Shown in pieces: positions 13,530 to 28,473 of a stretch of 64,000 nucleotides of DNA. The notes beneath the pieces were generated by a model. That model searched no databases and was not told where the DNA came from. It saw only the letters and a list, made by a program, of their open reading frames with translations. Source of the DNA: Lingula anatina (Eukaryota; Animalia; Brachiopoda); NCBI GenBank assembly GCA_051362555.1, contig CM120649.1, positions 17,622,567 to 17,686,566 of the forward strand, given 5' to 3'. Positions within the stretch are counted from its first letter, which is position 1. Every line of letters begins with the position of its first letter. Both the position numbers and the translations under genes were made by a program.

Positions 13530-14030
13530 CTGATTGGTCAGATGGGTGGTTGGCACGGTAACACAGTGAAAATAAGGCCAGCAATTGGATGAAAGCACAA
13601 TATGGTCACAGCATGCAGAGTAGAGAGCACACACCGCAAGCAAGAGTGAAAAGTGCATGTGAAATAAAAAAAAGAAAGTGAAACATTGTTACTGAAAAAC
13701 ATGTATACCAATTTCAGTTAACGTGGCATAAACTAAACTTCCTAAAAATATTGTTAAAAAACAGTTCCCTTCACCTTTGTAATTGTTATAAAATTCAGGA
13801 AACAATGAAAAGAGGTGACTTACAACCAGAAATTTAGTACATTGTTCATGCTGACAGTAAGCAGTAGAATCCAAAATACATTAGCACAGGGATACAATTA
13901 TTGCACATCTATGTCACATTTACATTTTTGAGCTCAAAGATGTCCAAAGTACTTTGCTTCTATTAATTGAAGCAAAATCCCCAAACATTTGATTAAAAAT
14001 CTGTGCAATACTTTAGAAAGAAAAGATTGT

Positions 14031-14079: not shown

Positions 14080-14487
14080 GTGATAAAAAGCAAACTAAAA
14101 CTTAAAGCAAATGTGAAATTTTAAAGGTCAAAATATAGCAGGAAGCCAAGGAGAGGAATGGTATTTTTCATGATACATGGAGACATTTCAGAGTACAACT
14201 TTTGTAGCAAAGAGTCAAGGGGGTAGTCTGACAAATAATTCTGATTTTGCTAAACAAATTCTGTTCAAATGGTGCCCTGTTGTAGCATATATCACTGAAC
14301 CACGGCCAAACCAGATGCTGATATATGGTTTAAATACCAACGGGTCAACATGTAAACACATTAAAATTGATATCAAAATGAGAACAAATAAAGCCATTGT
14401 AAATAATGAAAATCATTGAAAATTGTACATAAATTTAAATATATATATATATGCACATAAATTATGTAAATTGTATGTAAATCTTAC

Positions 14488-14638
14488 ATGCTACTGGCAT
14501 ATAACCTTGCTGGTGCTGTAGCTGCATGGAGAGAGCCTGTTGGTAGGCAGTGGCGGTGGTTGGCTGGTAGACAGGAAGCCCATTCTTATCTGCTACGGCC
14601 GGACGCTTGATGTACTGCGGCATTCCTGGGACCATGCC
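14488..14638 (-). CDS. mbl: Muscleblind exon with KRPA motif (second NLS half), phase 0 to 1
   Basis: Acceptor ttttattttatccatcag, donor GTAAGA, 151 nt. Reads GMVPGMPQYIKRPAVADKNGLPVYQPTTATAYQQALSMQLQHQQGYMPVA; KRPA..DK.GLPVYQP is characteristic of invertebrate Muscleblind. Confidence 0.92.
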
Positions 14639-15594
14639 CTGATGGATAAAATAAAATTCACAGGCATCTCAAATGCCTTAACCCACCCTAACTGACCAAG
14701 GAGGACGAAAATTCTCACGATTTTTGATTCAACTGAAAATTTTCGTTTCTCTTCAGAATGCGAGATAATAACCAAGATGACAGCAATGTTAGTTATAGTA
14801 ATAGTAATTAATTTGGAAGAGGTCAAAAACATGCCAAATGTATACAATTCTTTTTCGATTTTGCTTTAGGAAATGTTGGTGTTGATGAAAACATGAAAGG
14901 CTGGTGCTGTTTGCCAATAGCTGTGTTTCAAACCAGGATCATGGTGACTGAATTTGCATATCATTTACATAAGTGGATCTGCAGAAAAACAGGAATAAAG
15001 ACCTCACAGGTGGTTGGGTCAAGTTTTTTGGTTATGAAGCATGGTGGTGGGAATAAATAGTTCACAGTGACTGTTGTCACCAACGAGTAAAGGATAAAAC
15101 AATTTGGAAGAGGGTAAGTTTATAGGTAATGATGTTATATCGGGTTTCGTTGAGGTTTTTTCAACCCCTTCTATTTCTCAGTTACCATTATGCATTTTCA
15201 GTTCAACATGACTTGATTTACTGTGATAAAAGAAGAGACTGGATGGTGCAAGTCACTTTCAGCGCTGACTGAATATTGTGGGCATCATTTCATTCAAAAG
15301 ATTAAAAGCAGAAAACAGATGGGTTTGAAATCAAACTATACACCCCACCCACTAGTATATACCATTGTCATAGAATAATAACCCATGGCCAGCCTTACAT
15401 ATAACACACACTACTGCAGCCCAGACCTCCAGATGGAGCCACTTGTGGACACATTGGGTAACAAACACCTGGTGCTCTCTGAAGTGTGGGTAATGTTTGA
15501 TACCATGCATACAAATATTTTCAGGGTGATGAACTTTAGACTATATTCATATACACACCCACAAGTTGAGTTGGCATTAGCTGAGGTGTATGGA

Positions 15595-15860
15595 AGCTAA
15601 AATGTATTCAAACTGTATGTAAATATGTGCAAACAAATTGTGTCCTTCAGTCATAACTGCGGTGTGCTTGAAAGAATGTATGCAAATTGTATGTAAGTAT
15701 ATGCACATTAATTACGTCCATCAGGCATAAGCTGGTGTGACTGAAGGAATTCAAGTGTATGCAAATTGTTTGTAATACATATGCACATAAATTATGTCCA
15801 CCAAGCATAAGCTAAAATGCATGATAAAATGTACACAAATTGTTTGTAAATATGTGCCCA
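15595..15860. repeat. Degenerate tandem repeat, about 55-80-bp unit, about 4 copies
   Basis: TGTATGCAAATTGT(A/T)TGTAA.TATATGCACA recurs near 15603, 15678, 15757 and 15830. Confidence 0.7.
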
Positions 15861-18800
15861 TCAATGAAATGCCAATTATGTAAATGCTGAGCAAATCTTT
15901 CATGCTGACATTCTTTGCCCTAGAAGGATAACATTGTTCACCTTGTATCCACCCAATCAATGTTCACATTTTGGGTGTCTTAATGTTTACTGTGTCCAAG
16001 AGTAACTCTTTCTGTACATCCGAGCTGCACTAGTAACAGTCTTATTTTAGACAGACCAGGCTAGGAAAATACTTGCTGTAATTAATGCCTTCTTAAATCC
16101 TGCTGATACTGTGGTTACAAAACAATATAAATGTAGAAGCACATAAATCTTACCAACAGTTCTGGTCCAGAAGATTTAAAAGCAATCTTTATATCAGATA
16201 ATATTTATATCAGGTTAATATTTTACATGTATTTATAATTAAGGAAAAATATCAGAAATTCAATGAAACAATGTTTTTCATAGCACAGCAATTGGAAGAA
16301 AATTATACAATTTCAAAGAAGACTGTTGTGATAATCATAACTGCCCTAATTTTATTTATGTAAGAAAGTGTTATGTTTTTGGATAAAATATGCAATTGAA
16401 AAAATATTAACAATGTGTCCAATACTCTCAAAAAAAAAAAAAAAAAAAAAAAAAATCCAAATAAGTGAAGTTTGAAATGTGTGGGTAATTACCCTATCAA
16501 TGATGGAGAATAAGTGGAAGATTTTAAGAAGGCATTTGACATAGTTCTTTCCATCACAGCCTGCCATTACAGAGTTGATTCAGGGATCCCTTTAACAAAA
16601 GTAATACTGAGCACAATTCACTGAATTAGTTTAAGTTTCATGAGAAAATAATAATATGAATTATGTTACGAAAGTAATATCAACAGAGATATTAAATGTT
16701 TGGTATCACAGCATTTGAAATTCATGTTCACTTCTGCAAAGAAAGTGTTAAAAGAAAGGATAATTTAAACTATACAATGAACATTTCTTATCTCCAAATT
16801 CCAACGTCATTTAAGGATTGACACATCACCAAGAAACTGTAATAAACGTTTTTAAATGATACCACACATTACACTGTTATCAAAAGGATCCCTCAATTTC
16901 ACAAAAAACAAGTCATACACAATTCTCTTTAAATTAATTCATGTTTTGAAGTATAAATTTTTTTCCATTGTAACCATACATGTGCCCTCTTTCAAGAGAA
17001 AGAAAAATTCAAATTGATTTTTGCTTGCTGTGTATAACTTGTGACAAGAATTCTAAAGAAAGTACATCACTATTAAGCAACTTATTATCAAGCATTACTC
17101 TGCATTCTGACACTGATTGTCCTGCTGGTTTGGGTTGTCTTTGTTCTGACAATTCAAATGTTGGATGGAATGACCTTACTGGGCTGATATAACAATTAAA
17201 CAGGCGGAGAGGAGATTTGAAATAAATGTTAGATGTCATGACAAAACTAAGATTAGCCCAGTCCCAAATTTAAATTAAAAGGCCAATTCTGTCTAGAAAC
17301 GGTAATGTGATTGCATAAAAATTGCTTGAAAACATCTAGTCTGGATGATCCATGTAACTTTGGATATGATGGTGGATTCCAATAACTAGGCATGACTGAA
17401 TTTTGCATGGCAAATATTTCTTGGCAACAGTTTCAACAGTAACATAACAATCCCATAACACCAGGATATCAAGTGCACCATATTATATACACAATAGAAA
17501 CTTTAGAACCAAGTAAGGCAAAATAGTGAGCTCTACAGTCCTAAGCTTGTAAAATATTTTGCAACTGATAAAGTTTTATTTAAGTGATAACAGAGAATTT
17601 TTTAAAATTAAATAAACAAAGAAGGTTGCTCTCTATGTATTTATACATATTGACTAATATTTTCTAGATTTTTTGTTTCTAAAATTACTTTATTTATTAT
17701 ATGCATAACCACATGACACTGCTATTATGTAAAAGGTTAAAAGAACAATGTGCCCTAAAGACAAAAAAATTTAGTTCTGAATCATCAAAATGACGAAAAA
17801 TCCTTTTCTTCATGATTGTGACAACTTTTTGGAAATGAGCCACCAGCAAAGCCTTCTCTGCAAATATTTGGGCTTTAAGAGAAATGTTTGATGAAGGTTG
17901 ACTTAAATTTACATAGAAAATTAGGACTTTATTACATATTACTCCGAGCAGAAAGTAAATAAAATTCAAGCAAGTTACACTACAGGTAAAAGCTCATATT
18001 GGGAAATGAAAAAACCTCAAAAGCACTAACACTTCTAGTAAAACAATTTTGCATTTGGGGATTTCAATAATATCAAACAATGATTATAGCCAAAATAATT
18101 TACTAATGCAGCCCTACTACTTTGGTATTCTATAAGAATTTAATGCATCACCACAATTAGAAGTAAATTAAGTAAATTACAAGCAAAACTTGCAACATCT
18201 TGGTCCATTCAAAAATTGCAGTTATTCAATTTTTAAATTCTATATTTTTGTCTGAATTATGTTAACAGAAAGCATTTTCCTTCAAAGTTTCAAAGCTGGG
18301 AAGAAAAGGTTAATGAAAAGGAAAACCAAATACTTAAAAATATTGGCAAGCGGCATCAGGACTTGGGGGCATGTTTTCTTCTGTTCAATAACGGGCATGT
18401 TTTTGATTTTTTTTTAATCGCTGTTACCTCCATCCAGGACCCATTAACTATAACTATCTAATACCAATTAGAAGATAAATATAAAAAAGGTGCTAATGTG
18501 GCAATCCTGCAGGTGCTGTGAAAAAAAATCTAACAAATTAAATAAATAAAAAAACGAATTTTTTAACTTTCTCACCCTCTGAATCTATCATACCGTTTTT
18601 AACATCTACATCATGATAATTAGTTGGCACACACATAGTACATTGATGCTGGTTTTAACGGAGAGGTGTAGGTGGCAGCAATATATAGCTAAACACACAA
18701 TCCTGCCCATACAATAATAATGATGATAATAATAAATAACAGAATCAACCAATTATGAGTGGTCCAAAGCTTTTTAGAGAGATCTGAGGAGAACAGATGG

Positions 18801-18896
18801 TTGATATTGAGAGAGTAGCCTGTGTCATGTGGCTGTGCAAAACCATATTTTCAAAGCCTCTATCGCTACATGCAAAGCATCATGGGATCATAGTAC

Positions 18897-18962
18897 CAGA
18901 ATGAGATCGTCGGAGGGCTCACGAGGTCGCTTCTTTCCTGTCAAGACCTCAACCACTTGCGG
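18897..18962 (-). CDS. mbl: Muscleblind 66-nt NLS cassette exon (likely equivalent of vertebrate MBNL1 exon 5)
   Basis: Acceptor ctgcctactactaattag, donor CTG|GTACTATG. Symmetric phase 0, reads PQVVEVLTGKKRPREPSDDLIL with a basic KKRPR cluster. Confidence 0.88.
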
Positions 18963-19086
18963 CTAATTAGTAGTAGGCAGAGCACATGATGGGCCAATGA
19001 AATGGCAGCATGGCAGGGTTGGCGGCACATGACAACAGCAAGCAGCAAGGCATTGTGGGTAATAAAAATAAAAAGAAAAACGGCAC
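18963..19086 (-). promoter_or_regulatory. Intronic MBNL-binding (YGCY) cluster and AG-exclusion zone upstream of the NLS exon
   Basis: 12 minus-strand YGCY motifs counted in about 110 nt. No minus-strand AG between 18965 and 19086, and a U-rich tract is displaced to about 19060-19080. Confidence 0.8.
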
Positions 19087-19149
19087 CTTTTGTAAAAACA
19101 AGATAAGTCAAAAACCAACATGCATTCAAAACCATTGATCTAAGCTCAC

Positions 19150-19191
19150 TTTCAGCCCCAGTCGCATGCCTTTCAACGACTCCCCTTTTTT
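19150..19191 (-). CDS. mbl: Candidate 42-nt symmetric cassette exon (KKGESLKGMRLGLK)
   Basis: Acceptor gtttttttag, donor AAA|GTGAGC; length is a multiple of 3 and open in phase 0. Confidence 0.45.
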
Positions 19192-19681
19192 CTAAAAAAA
19201 CATCTGTATATAAAGTTTTCCCGTTCTCTCTAATAAATTACAGAGAACTATGTGAATACAAAATTAGTTTCCATTTTCCTTTTATCCTTATAATGATGAA
19301 GTCCACTAATAGATTCCACCTGTTCACTTTAATGGTTAATGCAGATAAACTAAAAGAGTCAGGCACACAGATATAGCTCATGCTGCAGACACCGCACTCC
19401 ACAACGTCTCTTCGTTACACAGACAACCAGGCAGTATTTAAATTTCACAGTACCATGCATGGCGCCCGCACTTCAGCCCCCAGCACCATTATACTCAGTG
19501 TAATTAAAAAAAAGCACCAGTCTATCATCTGGGTGGTCTCCTGGCAACAGTTGCTATGGCAATATCAAAAATATTTCTTTGCTAAGGACATTTTAGAATT
19601 AAATTTAGATCCAAAATTTGGTGCCATCAGAGAATTTGATGACCGCATGACAATGTTTTTGTTCTAGGTAACCAGACTGAC

Positions 19682-19724
19682 CTGGTTTAGAGGGACGTTG
19701 TGGAAGGGCGGAGTCAGTGGCACA
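19682..19724 (-). CDS. mbl: Candidate 43-nt frameshifting (poison-like) cassette exon
   Basis: Acceptor ctcctcgtctcctggtgccatctag, strong donor CAG|GTCAGT, in a GC-rich island. Phase 0 reads CATDSALPQRPSKP then shifts frame. Confidence 0.45.
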
Positions 19725-21228
19725 CTAGATGGCACCAGGAGACGAGGAGTGTGCAAATCATAGGAAACAGCAGTGTTGACGAAGGTACGCCTCTAAGCTG
19801 TGCCTTCCATATAATTTCTCCTTTTATTTATCATTTTAACTGATATAACTTCAAAGGTATTTGTTTTGTTTTGTTACTTCAGACTTTCTTTGAAATTGTT
19901 CCCATATTTTACACACAAAATTTGCCTTTTAAGATATAACTAAGTTCATACAATTCATTTAATAAGGGAATGATCTACTTAATACTGAGTTCTACTTTTA
20001 AGAGAAAATTTCATGAGAAAAATAAGTTTTTATCCATGTTATAAGCACAATTTACCTGAAATTATCACAAATGTCAATTAAAAAAAAAGGCATAAAAGCA
20101 GCACTGAAGATTCATTGAAATCTATATATTTTTTATGTGAAAAAAAAACAAAACTGATTAGTAGTTTTTTTACAAAAAAATCCATTACAACATAAGAAAT
20201 GCACACAGCATATTGAGTAACCAATTTCATCAAGATTAAGCCAAATGTAGATGAAAGTTCAGGTGAAAGATACACATATATTTTATCCAAAGAAAGTCTG
20301 AAATAACAAAGCTCAGAGTCTGAAAGGCAGCGGTCAACCCAAGACTGAAACTAAGCTAGTAGAATAAATACTTTAAGACTCTGTACACAATGTAATATGA
20401 ATACTACCTAGATTAAAAAGCAATAGACAGAGAGGTCTACCCAGTTTCAAGTGTAATTATGAAATAAGATGGCAAATCACAACATTGTTTCACACAGAAA
20501 GGTATCGAAAAAATTTTTTTTGCGATATTTCATTTTCAATTAGTTAAAGTACACTTCAGAATCACTTTAAGTTCAAAACAAATCTAAAATTTCTAGTGCT
20601 ATGAATTTCTGAACTACTGCAATGAATTTCTTGTTATAGTAAGATATTTTCTGCTGCATTATGTAGCAAGATGAAAGTACAAGTAGCATTATATATTTCA
20701 CACAAATATAACAGCAAGTGAGAAAGGTGATTTATGTAACCAAAAGTTTGGTGCTCCTGTGTAGTCCATTTTTTCTATAACCTCATACGAATAATTAAGG
20801 TTCAAAATGTGACTTGCTGCACTGATTATATCATTCTTAAACTTCATGATATATATTTTTTTGTTTTTTTTATTATTTATTTAAGAAGCAATGATCTGAG
20901 AGCAATTTTAAAAAATGTGACTTACACTCAATTTTAGTCATTTTTGTCCAGTATTATTTTTGGCCTAAATACAATGCAAACAATTTTGTTCTATATCACT
21001 GGTTGGCATTTGAGGTTATACAGAAAATTGACTTGGGTGAAAATTGGCTTTAATAATTAAAAACAAAGATGTAAATATATGTAACAGAATAATAAAGCCA
21101 ACGTTTGATAGGGGTGACTTTTTATAAACCCCTTTCAAATTTGGCAGTTCATTATACTGTTTAAGCTACATCTGCTTTGTTGTTTTTAGTTGAAATGTGA
21201 ATGAATCTTGATTCAAATGCAAGTTTTC

Positions 21229-21231
<3 letters not shown>

Positions 21232-21271
<40 letters not shown>

Positions 21272-21282
21272 TGTGTGTGTGT
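21232..21282. repeat. (GA)n then (GT)n microsatellite
   Basis: Direct observation. Confidence 0.95.
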
Positions 21283-22476
21283 CCAAACATACAAACAACA
21301 ACAGAACAGATGTTGGTACATGAATTATTCAAAAGAAAACAAAAAAGGTAAATCATATATCATCTTTGACTATCTCTCTAAACATGGAAACATACACACG
21401 AACAAACAAAACATTTTTTTCTCTATAGTAACATAAAACATACAAAACAAAAACAAATCACTATGGAAACAAAGACAGCAGGACCACTAAGAACTTTGCT
21501 ACAAAGCGATGATCGACGTCACATAATACAAGGGCTTAAACAAAGTGCATAGGGCTCAAATGGTTTACAAATGGCGTAAATAGTAACCACTGGGCTTAAA
21601 CAAAGACCACAGATGAGGGCTTAATAAATTATGCCCAAGTCACCAAATGAGCACTACTGTAAAACAATGCCAAGTTTTTTCAACTGGGTTATAAAAGAAA
21701 TTGACAACCTACCCTGACAGCTTGCCGGACACTTGCAATATTCCCAAGCATCTGATTGGTTGATAAATTGACTCGCTAGTAATAGTGTGCTTTAATGAGA
21801 TGACCTATAACAGGATTTTGGCATAAGGGAAGTGCTTTGAATCGGTTTCTTTGAAGGTGATTCGTGGCTTCAAGCTTAGAGGCTTTTAAGCTAGCTTGGC
21901 AACTGAATACAGAGAATATCCATAGTTTCACAAAACAGTGCATACTGAAAAGCTGTGTCTGAAATTATGGGATGGCGAGAGGAGAGTTTGTGAGATCTGG
22001 AATTTGAAGAAATACAGGGGGATACAAAGGGGTGAGGTAGCAGTTTGACCATGTAGCCTACAGGGTGACAGGAAAATCTGGAACAGGAATTAATCTAAGT
22101 GACATCCACAAAGCACAGTCCCCTAAAAGCCAATCCTCAGCAATAGTTCAGTTTTCCAGTCTCTTTTAAAATATATTTGTCCTTTCTGGCACCTTCATTA
22201 ATTTTTCTTTTGTCAAAAGACTACTGGAAATTGAACAAGTGAAACATCTATGTTGGCAAAATGTTTGAAAATATAACAAAGAGTTTTAGACATACGACTC
22301 CAGTTTAAAAACAGTGGAAAAAATATTCTGGCTTTATCTTCTCAAATAAAATGCCCAAATCATTGAAAAATATGCTATGGAAAATTATGAAGACTTCATT
22401 TTATATGCAATTTCTTCTCATGCTAATTGTGAACAATGCGACTTTTTTTTTACAGTATGACTACATTGTATCATGC

Positions 22477-22515
<39 letters not shown>

Positions 22516-23352
22516 CGAATTTTTTTAAAAATCTTTTTTATTTGCAACATTTCGCCACACTGTATCTTTTCTGCAAGGGGGAAAATAGGCTGACAACACA
22601 AGCAAAGTTCTTAGCAGTACTAGGCACCACTATGCGTGACCCAAAACAACAGAAAAATAAAGAAGTAGAAAAAACAGACATACAAAAGAGAACAGGAAGA
22701 AAGTGAACACAGAGAACAGGATAAAGAAAAATTAACAAAGCTTCCCATCGCACTACGTATCCCTGCACTGGCCGTTAAGCCATTTTGAAATTCTCCTCCC
22801 TTTTGAAAGGAAAAAAAATTCCAACATGACCTTCTTCCCAAGTTCGCAGCCTTCAGTAAGTCAGGGGCCTCATTTACAATGGGGATTGTACATTTAATTC
22901 ATATGCAGAAGAAAGCCTATCATTCTTTGCCAATCATCTTTAACCAATCTTATTAAAATTAGATCATATGAATAAGCAGAGAATGACAGGACATAACTGT
23001 GTAAATGAGGGTGTGTTGGGGGGGGGGGGGGGCAGGGGAGGTTGACCTCAAGTGACCTGGTGGTTAGTTACTTTGACCACATCACCAAAGTTGTCACCTG
23101 CTCTAGCATGGTACCCCTGTGCACTTAAAGCCAACCTTGGAAGTGGGCACCTTAGGGGGATTAGGAGGCCGGACATCTTTTGAAAAAAACTGTACTGGAA
23201 TAAGAACTAGTAAATTAATCACACATGAAGCGCTGACAGACTGAATTCAACTGAAAAGATGAAAGCTGGGATCGAAAGACATCCGATTTGAATCCTGCTG
23301 CTTTTTCAATCTTTCTTTCTTTTCCGTGCTTCTCAGTTTCAGTTTTACTTAC

Positions 23353-23427
23353 ATTGCTCACAGATACAGGGACAGCCGCTCCAGGCGCTTCTTGGGCGTT
23401 TAGATCCACCCAGTATGTGCCGCTGGT
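23353..23427 (-). CDS. mbl: Muscleblind 75-nt symmetric exon (probably alternative)
   Basis: Acceptor tcactaccaattcag, consensus donor GTAAGT. Phase 0 reads TSGTYWVDLNAQEAPGAAVPVSVSN; GC-rich relative to its flanks. Confidence 0.65.
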
Positions 23428-24392
23428 CTGAATTGGTAGTGATAACATTTGAAACTGGCTCGTAGCAGGGCAAAGTACCACAACAATATCCTTATCAAGT
23501 TTTCTTAATTGCTTTTAAAAGTAACTCTTCGCCATCAAGCAACCAATTTTAATTCAAGTAATGATTGTTAATCCTTTTCTGTATCTTATGTTTTGTCATT
23601 TTTCAATTAGGTCATAGTTAAAGTACCAATTATGTTTAGACTTTTTGAGAATCATGCATGTTTAGCTTTAGCTTCTTTTAGGGATGATAAAAAATTGCGG
23701 TAAATATGCCCACCCATGAAAACCACACTGAAAACCAGGATTTGTATGAATAATCAGTAATACTGTTAGGTATTTATGTAAAAATTTTTTTTGTTTTCAT
23801 TTGGACCTTTCTCCTCTCCTCCTTGTAAGCAAACACAGAAAGAGCAAATTTAACAATTATGGGCTAAAATCAGAGCAAAGGGAAATAGTGGTAAAATAAT
23901 TCAATCGAAATAAAAGATTACAGAGCAGCAAAGGCAGGACTATTGATGGCAATCACTGAGGAAGCTGTTATAAATTTAATTGTTTCTGTTGGTCCTGTAT
24001 AACCCAAGACCGGTTTTCTGGTAATAAAATTTGTTAATATAATTTTTGTATAGACAATTTAAAAAAAGATCATGTGACAGAAATTTGTGATATTTGATTT
24101 GAAGTATTTTATTTATAATGATTGATTTTTCAAAACATATATTATCATGTTATTTGTATAATGAATACAGAAAAAGCTACAAAAAAAAAAAAAAAAAAAA
24201 AAACTTCCAAAGCTTTTCTTCCAGTAAAAGAATGATGATTATCTTTTATCCTTTTTATCATTTGGCAGCACTTTGGAGAAAGAAAGATAAAGCAGCAGCA
24301 AGGCGTAATTTAAACTCAAATATAAATTATTTGCAGCATTATTTTCTGCTTTTTTGCAATCATTTTCAATTTAAGCTTCTTTCTTCTTTGAT

Positions 24393-24560
24393 TTAATATT
24401 TTGAGAGATAGGTAGGAACAGAGAGGTACAAATAAGATGTAGCAAGCAGATTTTCTTCATTTCTGATATTTTTTTCTGTTTGTTGAGGAAGAAAATTGGG
24501 GAAAGGTTGTACAAAAGATGTAGCAAGCGGCGGACTGGATGGCTGCAGGGCAGGGATTTC
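24393..24560 (-). CDS. mbl: Candidate alternative terminal exon after ZnF4
   Basis: Acceptor tgcgtgctcttcattggcag; open in phase 0 for 55 codons (EIPALQPSSPPLATSFVQPFPNFLPQQ...LSKY*). No recognisable homology. Confidence 0.3.
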   Translation of the reverse strand, partial: EIPALQPSSPPLATSFVQPFPNFLPQQTEKNIRNEENLLATSYLYLSVPTYLSKY

Positions 24561-25358
24561 CTGCCAATGAAGAGCACGCAGTGTCAGAGAAGCAGACCAC
24601 AACCTCCACATAGTGGTTCTGACCTCATTTTCATATAGGACTGTTTTAATAATTTATTATTATTATCTTTTTTTTTTTTGTTCAAGAACTTCATTTTCAA
24701 ATTTTGAATGAGGTCAAAAGTAATCATTTATGCCATCCTGTCAAATTACACATCATATCTCACAGCTTTAGTTCATCAGTTCATCCAAAATAACGAAATA
24801 TGGATGGTTCCATGAATCAATGAGGCTATATGCCATGGTTTCAAATACTGAATATTTTATAATATTATAAAAACCATGAGCGATGATATTAAAGTTGACA
24901 GCAGTGCATTCTTTGATTATGCAAATGTCCAAAATGTTCCATTATTAAGTAATTAAACAGCTTATCTATATTTCATTGAAGGGGGAAGTGGTGTTCTCCA
25001 CTGTCTTGTTGGCTCATATACTATATAAGTGTCAAAAAAAAATTAAAGTGTATAGGAGTCGCATCACACTTGATTTAGTAAAAAAAGAAATAGAAAAAAA
25101 TTCTGCAATTCTGAGGTACCTTGACAATTTCCACAAAACAAAACAAAACAAAAAAAAAAAAAAAATACCTGGCTTCTTAGGCAAGACCACTTTAGACCGA
25201 AAGTTTTCCTAACTTGCTTCATGAGACAACAAGATTAGAGAGGAAAAAACCCACTGCTTCGGTTCAAACCAGTTTTGGCGCGAAGAGTCTAAAGACAGAG
25301 ATAACTGTGTGGAGGTTGCGCGTGGCAAGAGAGAGACCAAGCGGGAGACAATCCCTAC

Positions 25359-25613
25359 CATAGCTTGGGCTTGAGCAGTGGCAGCGGCAGCAGCAGCATT
25401 AGCTCTTTGTTGAATAGCCTTAATCTGGGCCTGAAGGTGAGGAGGAGGGTGGAAGTAACGACACGAGTCGCGCGAGCACTTCCCCTTAATGTAATCCATA
25501 CAGACAGTTACATGGTTATCGTTTGGGTCAATGTGCACGCTGTCAGGGGGGTGGGCGTATCTACACTCATCGTGCTCACGACTGCACGCTCCGCGCTGAA
25601 ACTCACGACATAC
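25359..25613 (-). CDS. mbl: Muscleblind exon, ZnF3 and ZnF4 plus alanine-rich tract
   Basis: Acceptor ctttctctcttctcttccag, donor ATG|GTAGGG, 255 nt. Reads [85 protein letters not shown], very like vertebrate MBNL ZnF3/4. Confidence 0.97.
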
Positions 25614-26981
25614 CTGGAAGAGAAGAGAGAAAGAAAATTGCGTGTAATTATGAGTGCATGGCTGAAACAGACAAAATAAGATTTTACTGTCACAGATATC
25701 CGTTTTTGGATTTTGGCTGTGTTTAATTCTTTTGAATTTATTCTTAATTATATTAAGTCATGAAACAAAGAGAAAACATGTCACAGTCAGTAAAATATTT
25801 TTAACAATATAACTGCTTCATGAATATATTCATTTATAAACCATCGTCAATTCAATAACCAAAAATGCAGAATTAATGAAGTGTAATCCTGAAAAGAGAG
25901 GACTTGGTTAAACAAAGTTTCCAAATCACCAACAGGTCCCAACCAATACCTTTATAAATATATAACAGTCATGTCATGTGTCTCCAGCACTTTAAAGCAC
26001 TTTATATTCTATTTATTTGTGAAAAACGTATGTGAAGGACCAACTTTTTCACAGCACCTTCTATAAAGATATATTAATTTTTTCTGAGTTCAAAAATTGG
26101 AAGTTTAGACCTGCTCAAATCTGTGTCCAACTGTGGACTTCAGAGCAAAGAAAACACCCATTGGAAAAAAAAAAAGGTGATGCACCTTGAATTTTTTTCA
26201 CATTCAGGTTGCATATTATTGCAAATCACAGTAATTGAAGTAAAATAAAAAATAAAAAACACAGACAATCACATGAACTACAAAAGAACAAATCCCGATC
26301 ATAAAAATAGATACAGAGTGATTAAGGAGAGCTGTCCCCCTCTCCATCATTTCCATTCCATAAAAAGATCTATAAAAGAGAGGAAACTGCACAGACAAAG
26401 GAAATAACAATCAAACTAAGTGCTCCATCACCAAGATGTTCCCCATCCATTTCCATTTATATTCATGCAATGGAGAACAGCAGGAGGAATGACAAATCAC
26501 TGAGATTTGTTTACCCATAGAAAATATATTTCAAAGGAAAAAAGAAAAGCAATCTCTCCAAAGTTTGGGTCAAAATGAAATTATCCAAGGGATAAAGTGG
26601 AGGCATGAGGGGCTATAATATAATACTACTACATAATACGGAGGCAATAATTTTAATGAACTAAAATGGTAACAGTGAACTGAACATTTCCTTCTACCTC
26701 ATAAGTTGGTTTAGATCCTCCTCTCCCCCCCTACCCTGCCCCCCAGACTTAAGCCACACCCCACATACATACACTCCTTATGTTAAGCATTAGAATATGA
26801 CATGGACTGACCCTCTAGTCTTCACGACTTCAGTAGTTTAAACCAAGTTGTAAGTGCAGTACATGTATGCAACCCTCCAGTGAAGTGCTAAGCCAACATC
26901 ATGGCCTCTGTTCCTCCCTCACCCTACCCCCTCCCTACCCCCACCACATACGCCAAAACCCTCCCCACCCTAAGGCACTAC

Positions 26982-27188
26982 CTCTAGTCTATCTGCCCGC
27001 TGCAGCTTGGACTGGGCGGCGACCGTGGTGGGGACCCCTCCGGGGAGCTGAGCCGTGGAAGCCAGCGCCATGGACTGCATCATTTGGTTCCCGTCGGTGC
27101 TGCTGATCAAGCCCGCCGCGGCTGGGATTCCTGGGAGGGACGTGGCGTACTGGAATGCAGGGGGGACACCGCCAATGTACTGGGGGGC
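26982..27188 (-). CDS. mbl: Muscleblind linker exon ending in RADRLE
   Basis: Acceptor ccattattcttccag, donor GAG|GTAGTG, 207 nt. Reads APQYIGGVPPAFQY...AAQSKLQRADRLE; the KL.R.DRLE|VCRE junction is as in MBNL proteins. Confidence 0.93.
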
Positions 27189-28473
27189 CTGGAAGAATAA
27201 TGGCAACAATGTATCTTAATGTAAATGTTTTTAATTATATTGTAATAAATTGAAGGGAATGAGGTCATCTTCTATGTGGTGTCTGGAATGAGAATGACAA
27301 CTTTTCAGTTTGTTTTGCATAAAATACATAAATGCATAAATAAATAAATGAGAAAAAGATAAATAAATACAAGCCATGTTAATAAATAAAACAAAAATCA
27401 AACAAACACACATAAGTCAAAAGAAAATAGAAAATTGTTAATGTTGAAGGTACACTTGAAATTGTTACATGAAGTTTTTCAAAATATTATCATTTTTTCT
27501 CTGTTTCTTTTGTGAAATATTATACCTGGCTTTTTAATATCCCTCCATTTTCCATATGACATGGCTTAAAACTGGCGAGCTTGATAATTTTTCTTTAAAT
27601 GAGTCTTGCTTTATTTTTTAAACCTAATCTAGTAATATAATTTGGGTTTAATATATATTATATAGTTTATACAATGGCTGTATAAACTTATCTGTTATTA
27701 TAAGGGGAAAAAATAATCAACAGTAGTTCAAAATGTTCCAAATTGTGTTATTTTTTTTTTTAATGAGGAAGGAGACTTCTCACCCCCTGACCCTCTAGCT
27801 AATCTGAATCCATCCATACTTAAAAACACCAAGCGTTAATGACTTTATTTCCTTATAAATTATGTTCATTCAATCATCAGTAGTGAGGCAGGGGGCTTTT
27901 TAAGTGTTAAAGAATTGAAGGCCTGATAGAATTCCTTCCATGATTCACCATGTTTCCTCTCCACCGCAGGTGCAATTGCGTTATCCCATTTTCTCTGGAT
28001 GATATCATTCTCGGTATCTTAGCAACAAATGAAAACATTAGTCATGTGTGTCAAACAGCTCAATTGGATGAGGCAGAGATAATTGGATGATGGACCATTG
28101 TTGCTTTGCTTATTATTATCTGTGTAGGTTTTCAAAACATAATGCCCATTTAATTTTTGGAGTGTCAACCTAACATTATTTTTAATATTGGCATCACAGA
28201 GATAAACTACGTTCGATAAACCTCCCAAAAATTTGATAAATTTATCCTGATGCTGTTTTGCTCTCAGTTTTATTGCAATGTAACACCACTGCTCTTACTG
28301 CTATCTGATCCAAGTACTATCATAACACATGAATTCTTCATCCACAAACCTACTTAAAAGTATTCTATCTGGAATTTTCGCGAATTTTCCATGAGAGAAA
28401 AGCAATTTTCTTCTTTTAATGAATCATTGTCTGAGCCATCCCTGCACCTAGACCCAATTTTTTAGACCACTTC

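Follow-up and report, generated by a model that had tools for sequence, protein, structure and literature searches.

Muscleblind gene and its optional NLS exon

The 64-kb stretch of DNA analysed here (64,000 nt, hereafter the window) carries on its minus strand the muscleblind gene of the brachiopod Lingula, identified from open reading frames and protein comparison; all coordinates below refer to that strand. The exon for zinc-finger pair 2 (25359–25613, 85 aa), supported by read junctions and a protein match, shares 100% identity with the Lingula anatina muscleblind-like records P0002 and P0003, and molluscs are ~70–83% identical to it. Further along lie an alternative 75-nt exon (23353–23427) and a 66-nt cassette exon in phase 0/0 (18897–18962, PQVVEVLTGKKRPREPSDDLIL), both defined by junction reads (four in run X7 for the 75-nt exon), and a 151-nt exon (14488–14638) placed by read junctions. 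The cassette exon, hereafter the NLS exon, preserves the frame and encodes KKRPR, by which we assign to it the first KR of a putative bipartite NLS. It sits between the zinc-finger-4 exon and the 151-nt exon, which supplies the second KR (YIKRPAV), and KKRPR and YIKRP together correspond to both halves of the KR–KR signal of human MBNL. Among the listed joints, its sole upstream partner is the 75-nt exon. A preceding sequence-only reading had named the gene, the exon, the first half of a two-part KR signal and a protostome origin, all correctly, the origin by protein comparison.

The peptide of the NLS exon matches that of a clam (P0004) at 19 of 22 residues and that of a scorpion (P0048) at 16 of 22, and the vertebrate peptide is far off. 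An annelid peptide (P0155) is intermediate, with a brachiopod-like start and KRPLEAT in common with the vertebrate exon. Homologous first-KR peptides occur in molluscs, the annelid, the scorpion, amphioxus, ambulacrarians and vertebrates, and in amphioxus, a hemichordate, abalone, oyster and fish the exon is present in some gene models and absent from others. Judged by these peptides, the 66-nt exon is homologous across bilaterians. The hemichordate and echinoderm records P0013, P0042, P0023 and P0046 keep a segment resembling the first-KR exon and have KK as the second motif; in PMC10773944, Ambulacraria are entered as having no double KR.

The NLS exon is spliced in and out

Four RNA runs (X1, X2, X4 and X7, of nine labelled by species) were aligned to positions 14200–27260. 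Reads join the donor of the NLS exon to 14638 (nine in X7, two in X2) and its acceptor to the 75-nt exon ending at 23353 (four in X7), while 61 junctions in X4 and 66 in X7 skip the exon on their way into 14638. Among junction reads entering the next exon, inclusion amounts to 0/61 (X4), 9/75 (X7) and 2/2 (X2); run X1 has no junction read among those listed. The 66-nt exon is a cassette, chiefly skipped where gene coverage is good. Alternative splicing, as predicted from the letters, is thus seen directly as skipping and inclusion, and the exon is not constitutive.

These reads also bear on the possibility that the exon is an artefact, whether a stretch of vertebrate DNA that entered the assembly or a pseudo-exon. 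The exon is absent from the annotated Lingula proteins P0002 and P0003, as such an artefact would be, but reads labelled as the same species link the cassette to its neighbours, which refutes both versions, and its peptide sides with the clam and not with vertebrates. We give this reading a negligible probability.

Inclusion differs between X4 and X7 at similar exon depth (Fisher p = 0.004). Run X2 barely expresses the gene and includes the exon in 2/2 reads, against 9/136 in X4 and X7 combined (p = 0.006), a comparison that consists, on the X2 side, of two reads from a separate study with unspecified tissue. Low expression with inclusion is compatible with negative feedback and may be taken as a hint of it.

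Several other features of the reads are recorded here. Many intron positions of X7 disagree with the window, so this run represents another strain or population. Its read depth spans both introns beside the NLS exon (16800–24660), with little at 24664–25099 and 25972–26843, and these covered introns may be retained or slowly spliced; X4 has zero depth at 17688–20739. The exon for the second zinc-finger pair is bypassed in most junction reads, 26982 being joined to 14638 in 41/61 (X4) and 42/75 (X7). No direct joint between this finger exon (25613–25359) and the 75-nt exon (23427–23353) is present among the listed joints.

Motif layout around the NLS exon

The minus-strand sequence quoted in the sequence-only reading is present at 18885–19090, and the 12 YGCY motifs claimed for it are all found there. 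Eleven of them start between 19052 and 18979, forming a cluster (19052–18976) within the last 90 nt of the upstream intron, and we annotate 18963–19058 as a putative intronic silencer on the basis of this motif count and of the vertebrate alignment described below. The mean for 90-nt windows on the minus strand is 0.92 YGCY, and a window with 11 ranks second on the strand after 33936–33847. That densest cluster, with 12 motifs in 90 nt and 15 in 180 nt, sits in the intron after the finger-2 exon. Two smaller clusters, with 6 and 7 motifs in 90 nt, occupy 24614–24267 between the finger exon and the 75-nt exon.

The stretch without AG before the acceptor, given as ~120 nt from the letters, measures 122 nt. 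It is long compared with the 46, 25 and 27 nt at three further acceptors of this gene that reads confirm. As the 12th longest gap among 3,533 AGs of the strand, it is unremarkable alone, and we dropped it as evidence in its own right. The acceptor was also said to have no adjacent pyrimidine tract. This needs rewording: pyrimidines make up 70% of the 20 nt preceding the AG, with only 8 T among them, and the U-rich polypyrimidine tract sits further upstream, at about −121 to −100 (19061–19083). Upstream of this tract are three candidate distant branch points of the form YTNAY, predicted with the A at −146, −142 and −131 (19092–19111). The best fit is −131 (19093), since the last upstream AG follows it at a distance of only 5 nt.

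Junction reads confirm both ends of the exon. Its donor is non-consensus (GTACTATGA, 18888–18896), exonic CTG being followed directly by GTACTATG. The exon is flanked by two TGCATG hexamers that the earlier reading missed, one at −162 from the acceptor (19119–19124) and one past the donor (18874–18869). We take TGCATG to be an RBFOX-type motif here; it occurs 35 times on the minus strand of the window. A conserved RNA structure is unsupported, with folding z-scores of 0.8 and −0.45 in the window and 1.83 and 0.79 at the vertebrate loci introduced below, and a search of Rfam gave no matching family and one sub-threshold chance match.

Ordered blocks shared with vertebrate MBNL loci

The sequence-only reading had also given words of the human intron. 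Primer sequences for human MBNL1 intron 4 in PMC5082313 carry part of them on comparison by eye: they contain CCATCATGT and TGGCCCAT and, provided the primer pair is back to back, CTGCTTGCT then GTT. Two words of the window thus recur in the same order in the human intron. A search of metagenome contigs with these two window words returned 76 loci, two of which (L053 and L070) run on into a 54-nt exon. The peptide of this exon equals vertebrate MBNL2 records P0084 and P0118 in L070 and nearly so in L053. Scores for an exon-like peptide downstream were 86 (L070) and 78 (L053), against a best of 35 elsewhere (196 of 199 loci scored). The other matches, 74/76 from metagenomes, 3/3 from prokaryote genomes and 120/120 from viral collections, have no such peptide downstream and were set aside as chance. 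Muscleblind loci among the 199 retrieved thus number two, both vertebrate-type, and our comparison is of one protostome with two vertebrate loci, both found through window-derived seeds. The two agree with each other in 96 of 101 columns over the last 100 intron bases and in about half in their distant flanks.

Three exact blocks are colinear in Lingula, L053 and L070, at nearly equal distances from the acceptor. They measure 12 nt (19045–19034; −83 in Lingula, −82 in L053, −83 in L070), 10 nt (18999–18990; −37 in Lingula, −44 in the vertebrate loci) and 13 nt (18992–18980; −30 in Lingula, −31 in both L053 and L070). A 9-nt exact block is shared with L053 (19058–19050; −96 versus −110). The upstream TGCATG recurs at −184 in L053 and −179 in L070. 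At the donor, 8 of the first 9 intron bases and the exonic CTG are common to L070, and L053 is more different. The longest shared block, 15 nt including the downstream TGCATG (18865–18879), is identical in L070, 18 and 22 nt past the donor, and broken in L053; it falls just outside the span described from the letters. The 12-nt block is mostly YGCY, and three shared pieces are not built from it. The search pattern did not include the 9-nt block or the greater part of the 10-nt one, nor the donor, the 15-mer or the hexamer upstream.

The claim of near-identity with the vertebrate intron holds as similarity above chance and fails as near-identity. Exact matches come in blocks of 9–15 nt, the alignment matches in 72 of 124 columns (~58%) with indels and a diverged middle, and under the same settings unconserved flanks of the two vertebrate loci are ~50% identical, little below this value. 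With a longest exact block of 15 nt, the shared sequence is far from an ultraconserved element (at least 200 nt, 100% identical). The acceptor itself differs, being TAG in Lingula and AAG in L053 and L070.

One further word of 10–11 nt lies just past the Lingula donor (18888–18878) and in L070 and L053 instead about −98 before the acceptor. Seven nucleotides at its core complement the core of the shared 13-nt block, and the two cores pair in both predicted vertebrate folds, whose stability is no better than that of shuffles.

The similarity exceeds chance

Anchored on the AG, the last 50 nt of the intron score 40 and 35 against the two vertebrate loci; the maxima among 7,072 mock acceptors are 22 and 25, and none reaches either score. 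Over the first 40 nt after the donor, L070 scores 32, matched by 0 of 6,647 mock donors, and the score of L053, with its broken downstream block, is reached by 238 of them. The joint upstream and downstream score was reached by 0–1 of 2,000 shuffles preserving 3-mer or 4-mer counts and, with 4-mer counts preserved, by 0/2,000 for each locus. Once the two search seeds are taken out, the scores add up to 70 and 73, compared with 45.7 ± 5.4 (maximum 57) at 72 chance loci (72 of the 74 same-seed metagenome loci, two being left out for short flanks). Elsewhere in the gene, six YGCY-rich stretches score 20–53, compared with 75 and 66 for the element. Alignment beyond chance YGCY matches is therefore found against two MBNL2-type loci.

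Individual pieces carry less weight. Under strict gap costs, the upstream match to L070 alone is equalled by 9 of 2,122 tiles and 11–12 of 1,000 shuffles, and under gap-tolerant scoring 0–9 of 1,000 shuffles reach the upstream score. Exact matches of 10–11 nt arise off-diagonal and in reversed-sequence controls too, and we rejected single 9–11-nt matches as evidence on these grounds. The case for conservation is one of block order and position, with no single block decisive. What remains is that this non-coding sequence, at a homologous gene and with matching position and orientation, is more similar than chance predicts.

Such similarity could also have arisen by convergence, with the exon and the loop ancestral, the intron motifs turned over and the blocks produced by parallel selection for YGCY, TGCATG and U-rich motifs. 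This would suit the shortness of the shared blocks, the matches in off-diagonal and reversed controls, the largely YGCY make-up of the 12-nt block and the near-confinement of bilaterian exon conservation to the KR motifs (PMC10773944). Composition, however, does not reproduce the joint score in the 4-mer shuffles, and richer YGCY clusters in the same gene score lower. Moreover, the offsets of the 12- and 13-nt blocks agree within 1 nt and those of the 15-mer within 4 nt, and Lingula and L070 have non-consensus donor bases in common. On balance, we consider convergence unlikely and favour common descent as the source from which the shared blocks would stem.

Comparison with known muscleblind switches

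According to PMC7901844, mammalian MBNL1 represses its exon 5 through a 90-nt YGCY region whose deletion abolishes repression; the branch point was mapped at −141, the acceptor is a weak AAG and the exon contributes part of the NLS. Inclusion of the exon yields nuclear protein in human and worm (PMC7901844 and PMC10773944). An MBNL1 exon-5 minigene also responds to distant MBL homologs (PMC5041496).

The Lingula exon resembles vertebrate MBNL1/MBNL2 exon 5 in gene position, phase, the first KR of a two-part NLS and cassette splicing. Its upstream intron resembles intron 4 in the YGCY array within the last 90 nt, the long AG-free zone and the displaced U-tract (the best pyrimidine tracts start at −136 in L053 and −138 in L070), and a non-consensus donor and the ordered exact blocks are further likenesses. 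Unlike the 54-nt vertebrate exon, that of Lingula has 66 nt and another peptide. Its AG-free zone is 122 nt, compared with 138–143 nt, and its acceptor is TAG rather than AAG; the weak AAG is a trait of the vertebrate copies and not needed for the mechanism. The upstream neighbour in reads is the 75-nt exon in Lingula, whereas it is the zinc-finger exon in vertebrates. The most important single YGCY in human lies in the middle region of the silencer (PMC5082313), and this middle aligns poorly in Lingula.

Among protostomes, C. elegans mbl-1 exon 7 offers a second comparison, drawn here from the accessible part of PMC10773944. It is likewise an optional first-KR exon of a protostome muscleblind gene, with GCAUG and YGCY upstream, and its skipping is promoted by both MBL-1 and FOX-1. 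Unlike the 66-nt exon of Lingula, it codes for 75 aa. In that text, intron alignment is within Caenorhabditis only, with no letter-level match to the vertebrate intron. According to the same source, almost every bilaterian phylum has an optional KR exon, and in C. elegans this exon is autoregulated.

A proposed autoregulatory switch

We favour, with a probability of about 0.78, the explanation that the Lingula locus combines an optional exon with an inherited counterpart of the vertebrate MBNL1/2 exon-5 silencer, by which muscleblind would repress its own nuclear import. The parts of the Lingula region and their order correspond to those of the known systems, and from this we infer the same feedback loop. 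The exon is spliced in and out and its intron shares ordered blocks with MBNL2; therefore, the switch was probably inherited from the last ancestor common to brachiopod and vertebrates, its non-coding sequence included.

In this model, U2 and U2AF would assemble 100–130 nt upstream of the exon, where the candidate branch point and the U-rich tract lie. The YGCY array between these sites and the AG would be occupied by muscleblind, which would block use of the acceptor, and the weak donor would aid repression. Skipping would take out the first KR of the muscleblind import signal, so that rising muscleblind would shift the protein from nuclear to partly cytoplasmic. RBFOX on both TGCATG sites would adjust inclusion by tissue. 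We think it likely that this module (RBFOX sites, distant branch point and U-tract, YGCY silencer and weak donor) has stayed alignable, letter for letter, between brachiopod and vertebrate since the bilaterian ancestor.

Alternatively, the element may be inherited with RBFOX, or a factor binding the non-YGCY blocks, as the main determinant of inclusion and muscleblind feedback as a minor one. Both TGCATG sites are kept in position, the longest shared block is the TGCATG one, and X4 and X7 differ in inclusion at like exon depth. Set against this, the Lingula YGCY array is whole and packs more motifs than those of the two vertebrate loci (12 per 130 nt versus 9 and 8), and autoregulation has been demonstrated both in mammals and in a nematode; we regard a leading role for such a factor as quite improbable. 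Self-repression by muscleblind remains our preferred reading.

Depth of non-coding conservation

The sequence-only reading had proposed a conserved splicing element together with a nuclear-import loop. Its element gains from the above-chance intron similarity, whereas its loop, like the bilaterian-wide optional exon, is not new and is already published (PMC10773944). Letter-level conservation of the NLS-exon intron beyond vertebrates was not encountered in a full-text literature search with partial coverage of key papers and figures, and looking for the shared words themselves brought up two unrelated papers. What the present analysis adds, for a distant member of an established switch, is how deep the non-coding conservation reaches and that RBFOX-type sites flank the exon on both sides.

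Only rarely can non-coding DNA of vertebrates be aligned with that of protostomes. A vertebrate–invertebrate survey gives 25 conserved segments, comprising promoters, enhancers, three 3′-UTRs and one intron segment, and names Lingula as rich in bilaterian-conserved elements; in the text and supplement available, none of the segments matches Mbnl (PMC10735318). Like these segments, the Lingula element is a short non-coding similarity between vertebrates and a protostome that keeps its place and orientation beside a homologous gene. Unlike them, it is a splicing element, of a kind whose mechanism is known in mammals, which would be unusual among such segments.

If the whole module has indeed stayed alignable since that ancestor, the vertebrate MBNL ultraconserved element would have a Precambrian core, and the non-YGCY blocks would mark binding sites or structures as yet unassigned. 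Comparing Lingula with vertebrates amounts to phylogenetic footprinting of a region that matters in myotonic dystrophy. By this comparison, the letters longest under constraint are a few acceptor-adjacent blocks and both TGCATG sites; the surroundings of the YGCY most important in human reporters have turned over. The blocks and TGCATG sites are targets for mutagenesis on why the vertebrate element is ultraconserved.

A second exon of similar design

An 86-nt exon further downstream (13529–13444) has the same design as the NLS cassette. Its upstream intron (13693–13530) has a 160-nt AG-free zone, 6 YGCY in 130 nt and a TGCATG at 13617. Inclusion of this exon would turn exon 10245–10161 from a short stop-ended tail into a third zinc-finger pair, and a similar switch has been reported in fly (PMC9352392). 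Loose read ends at 14488 (95 in X4, 115 in X7) match the start of 10245, and the 86-nt exon is therefore skipped there.
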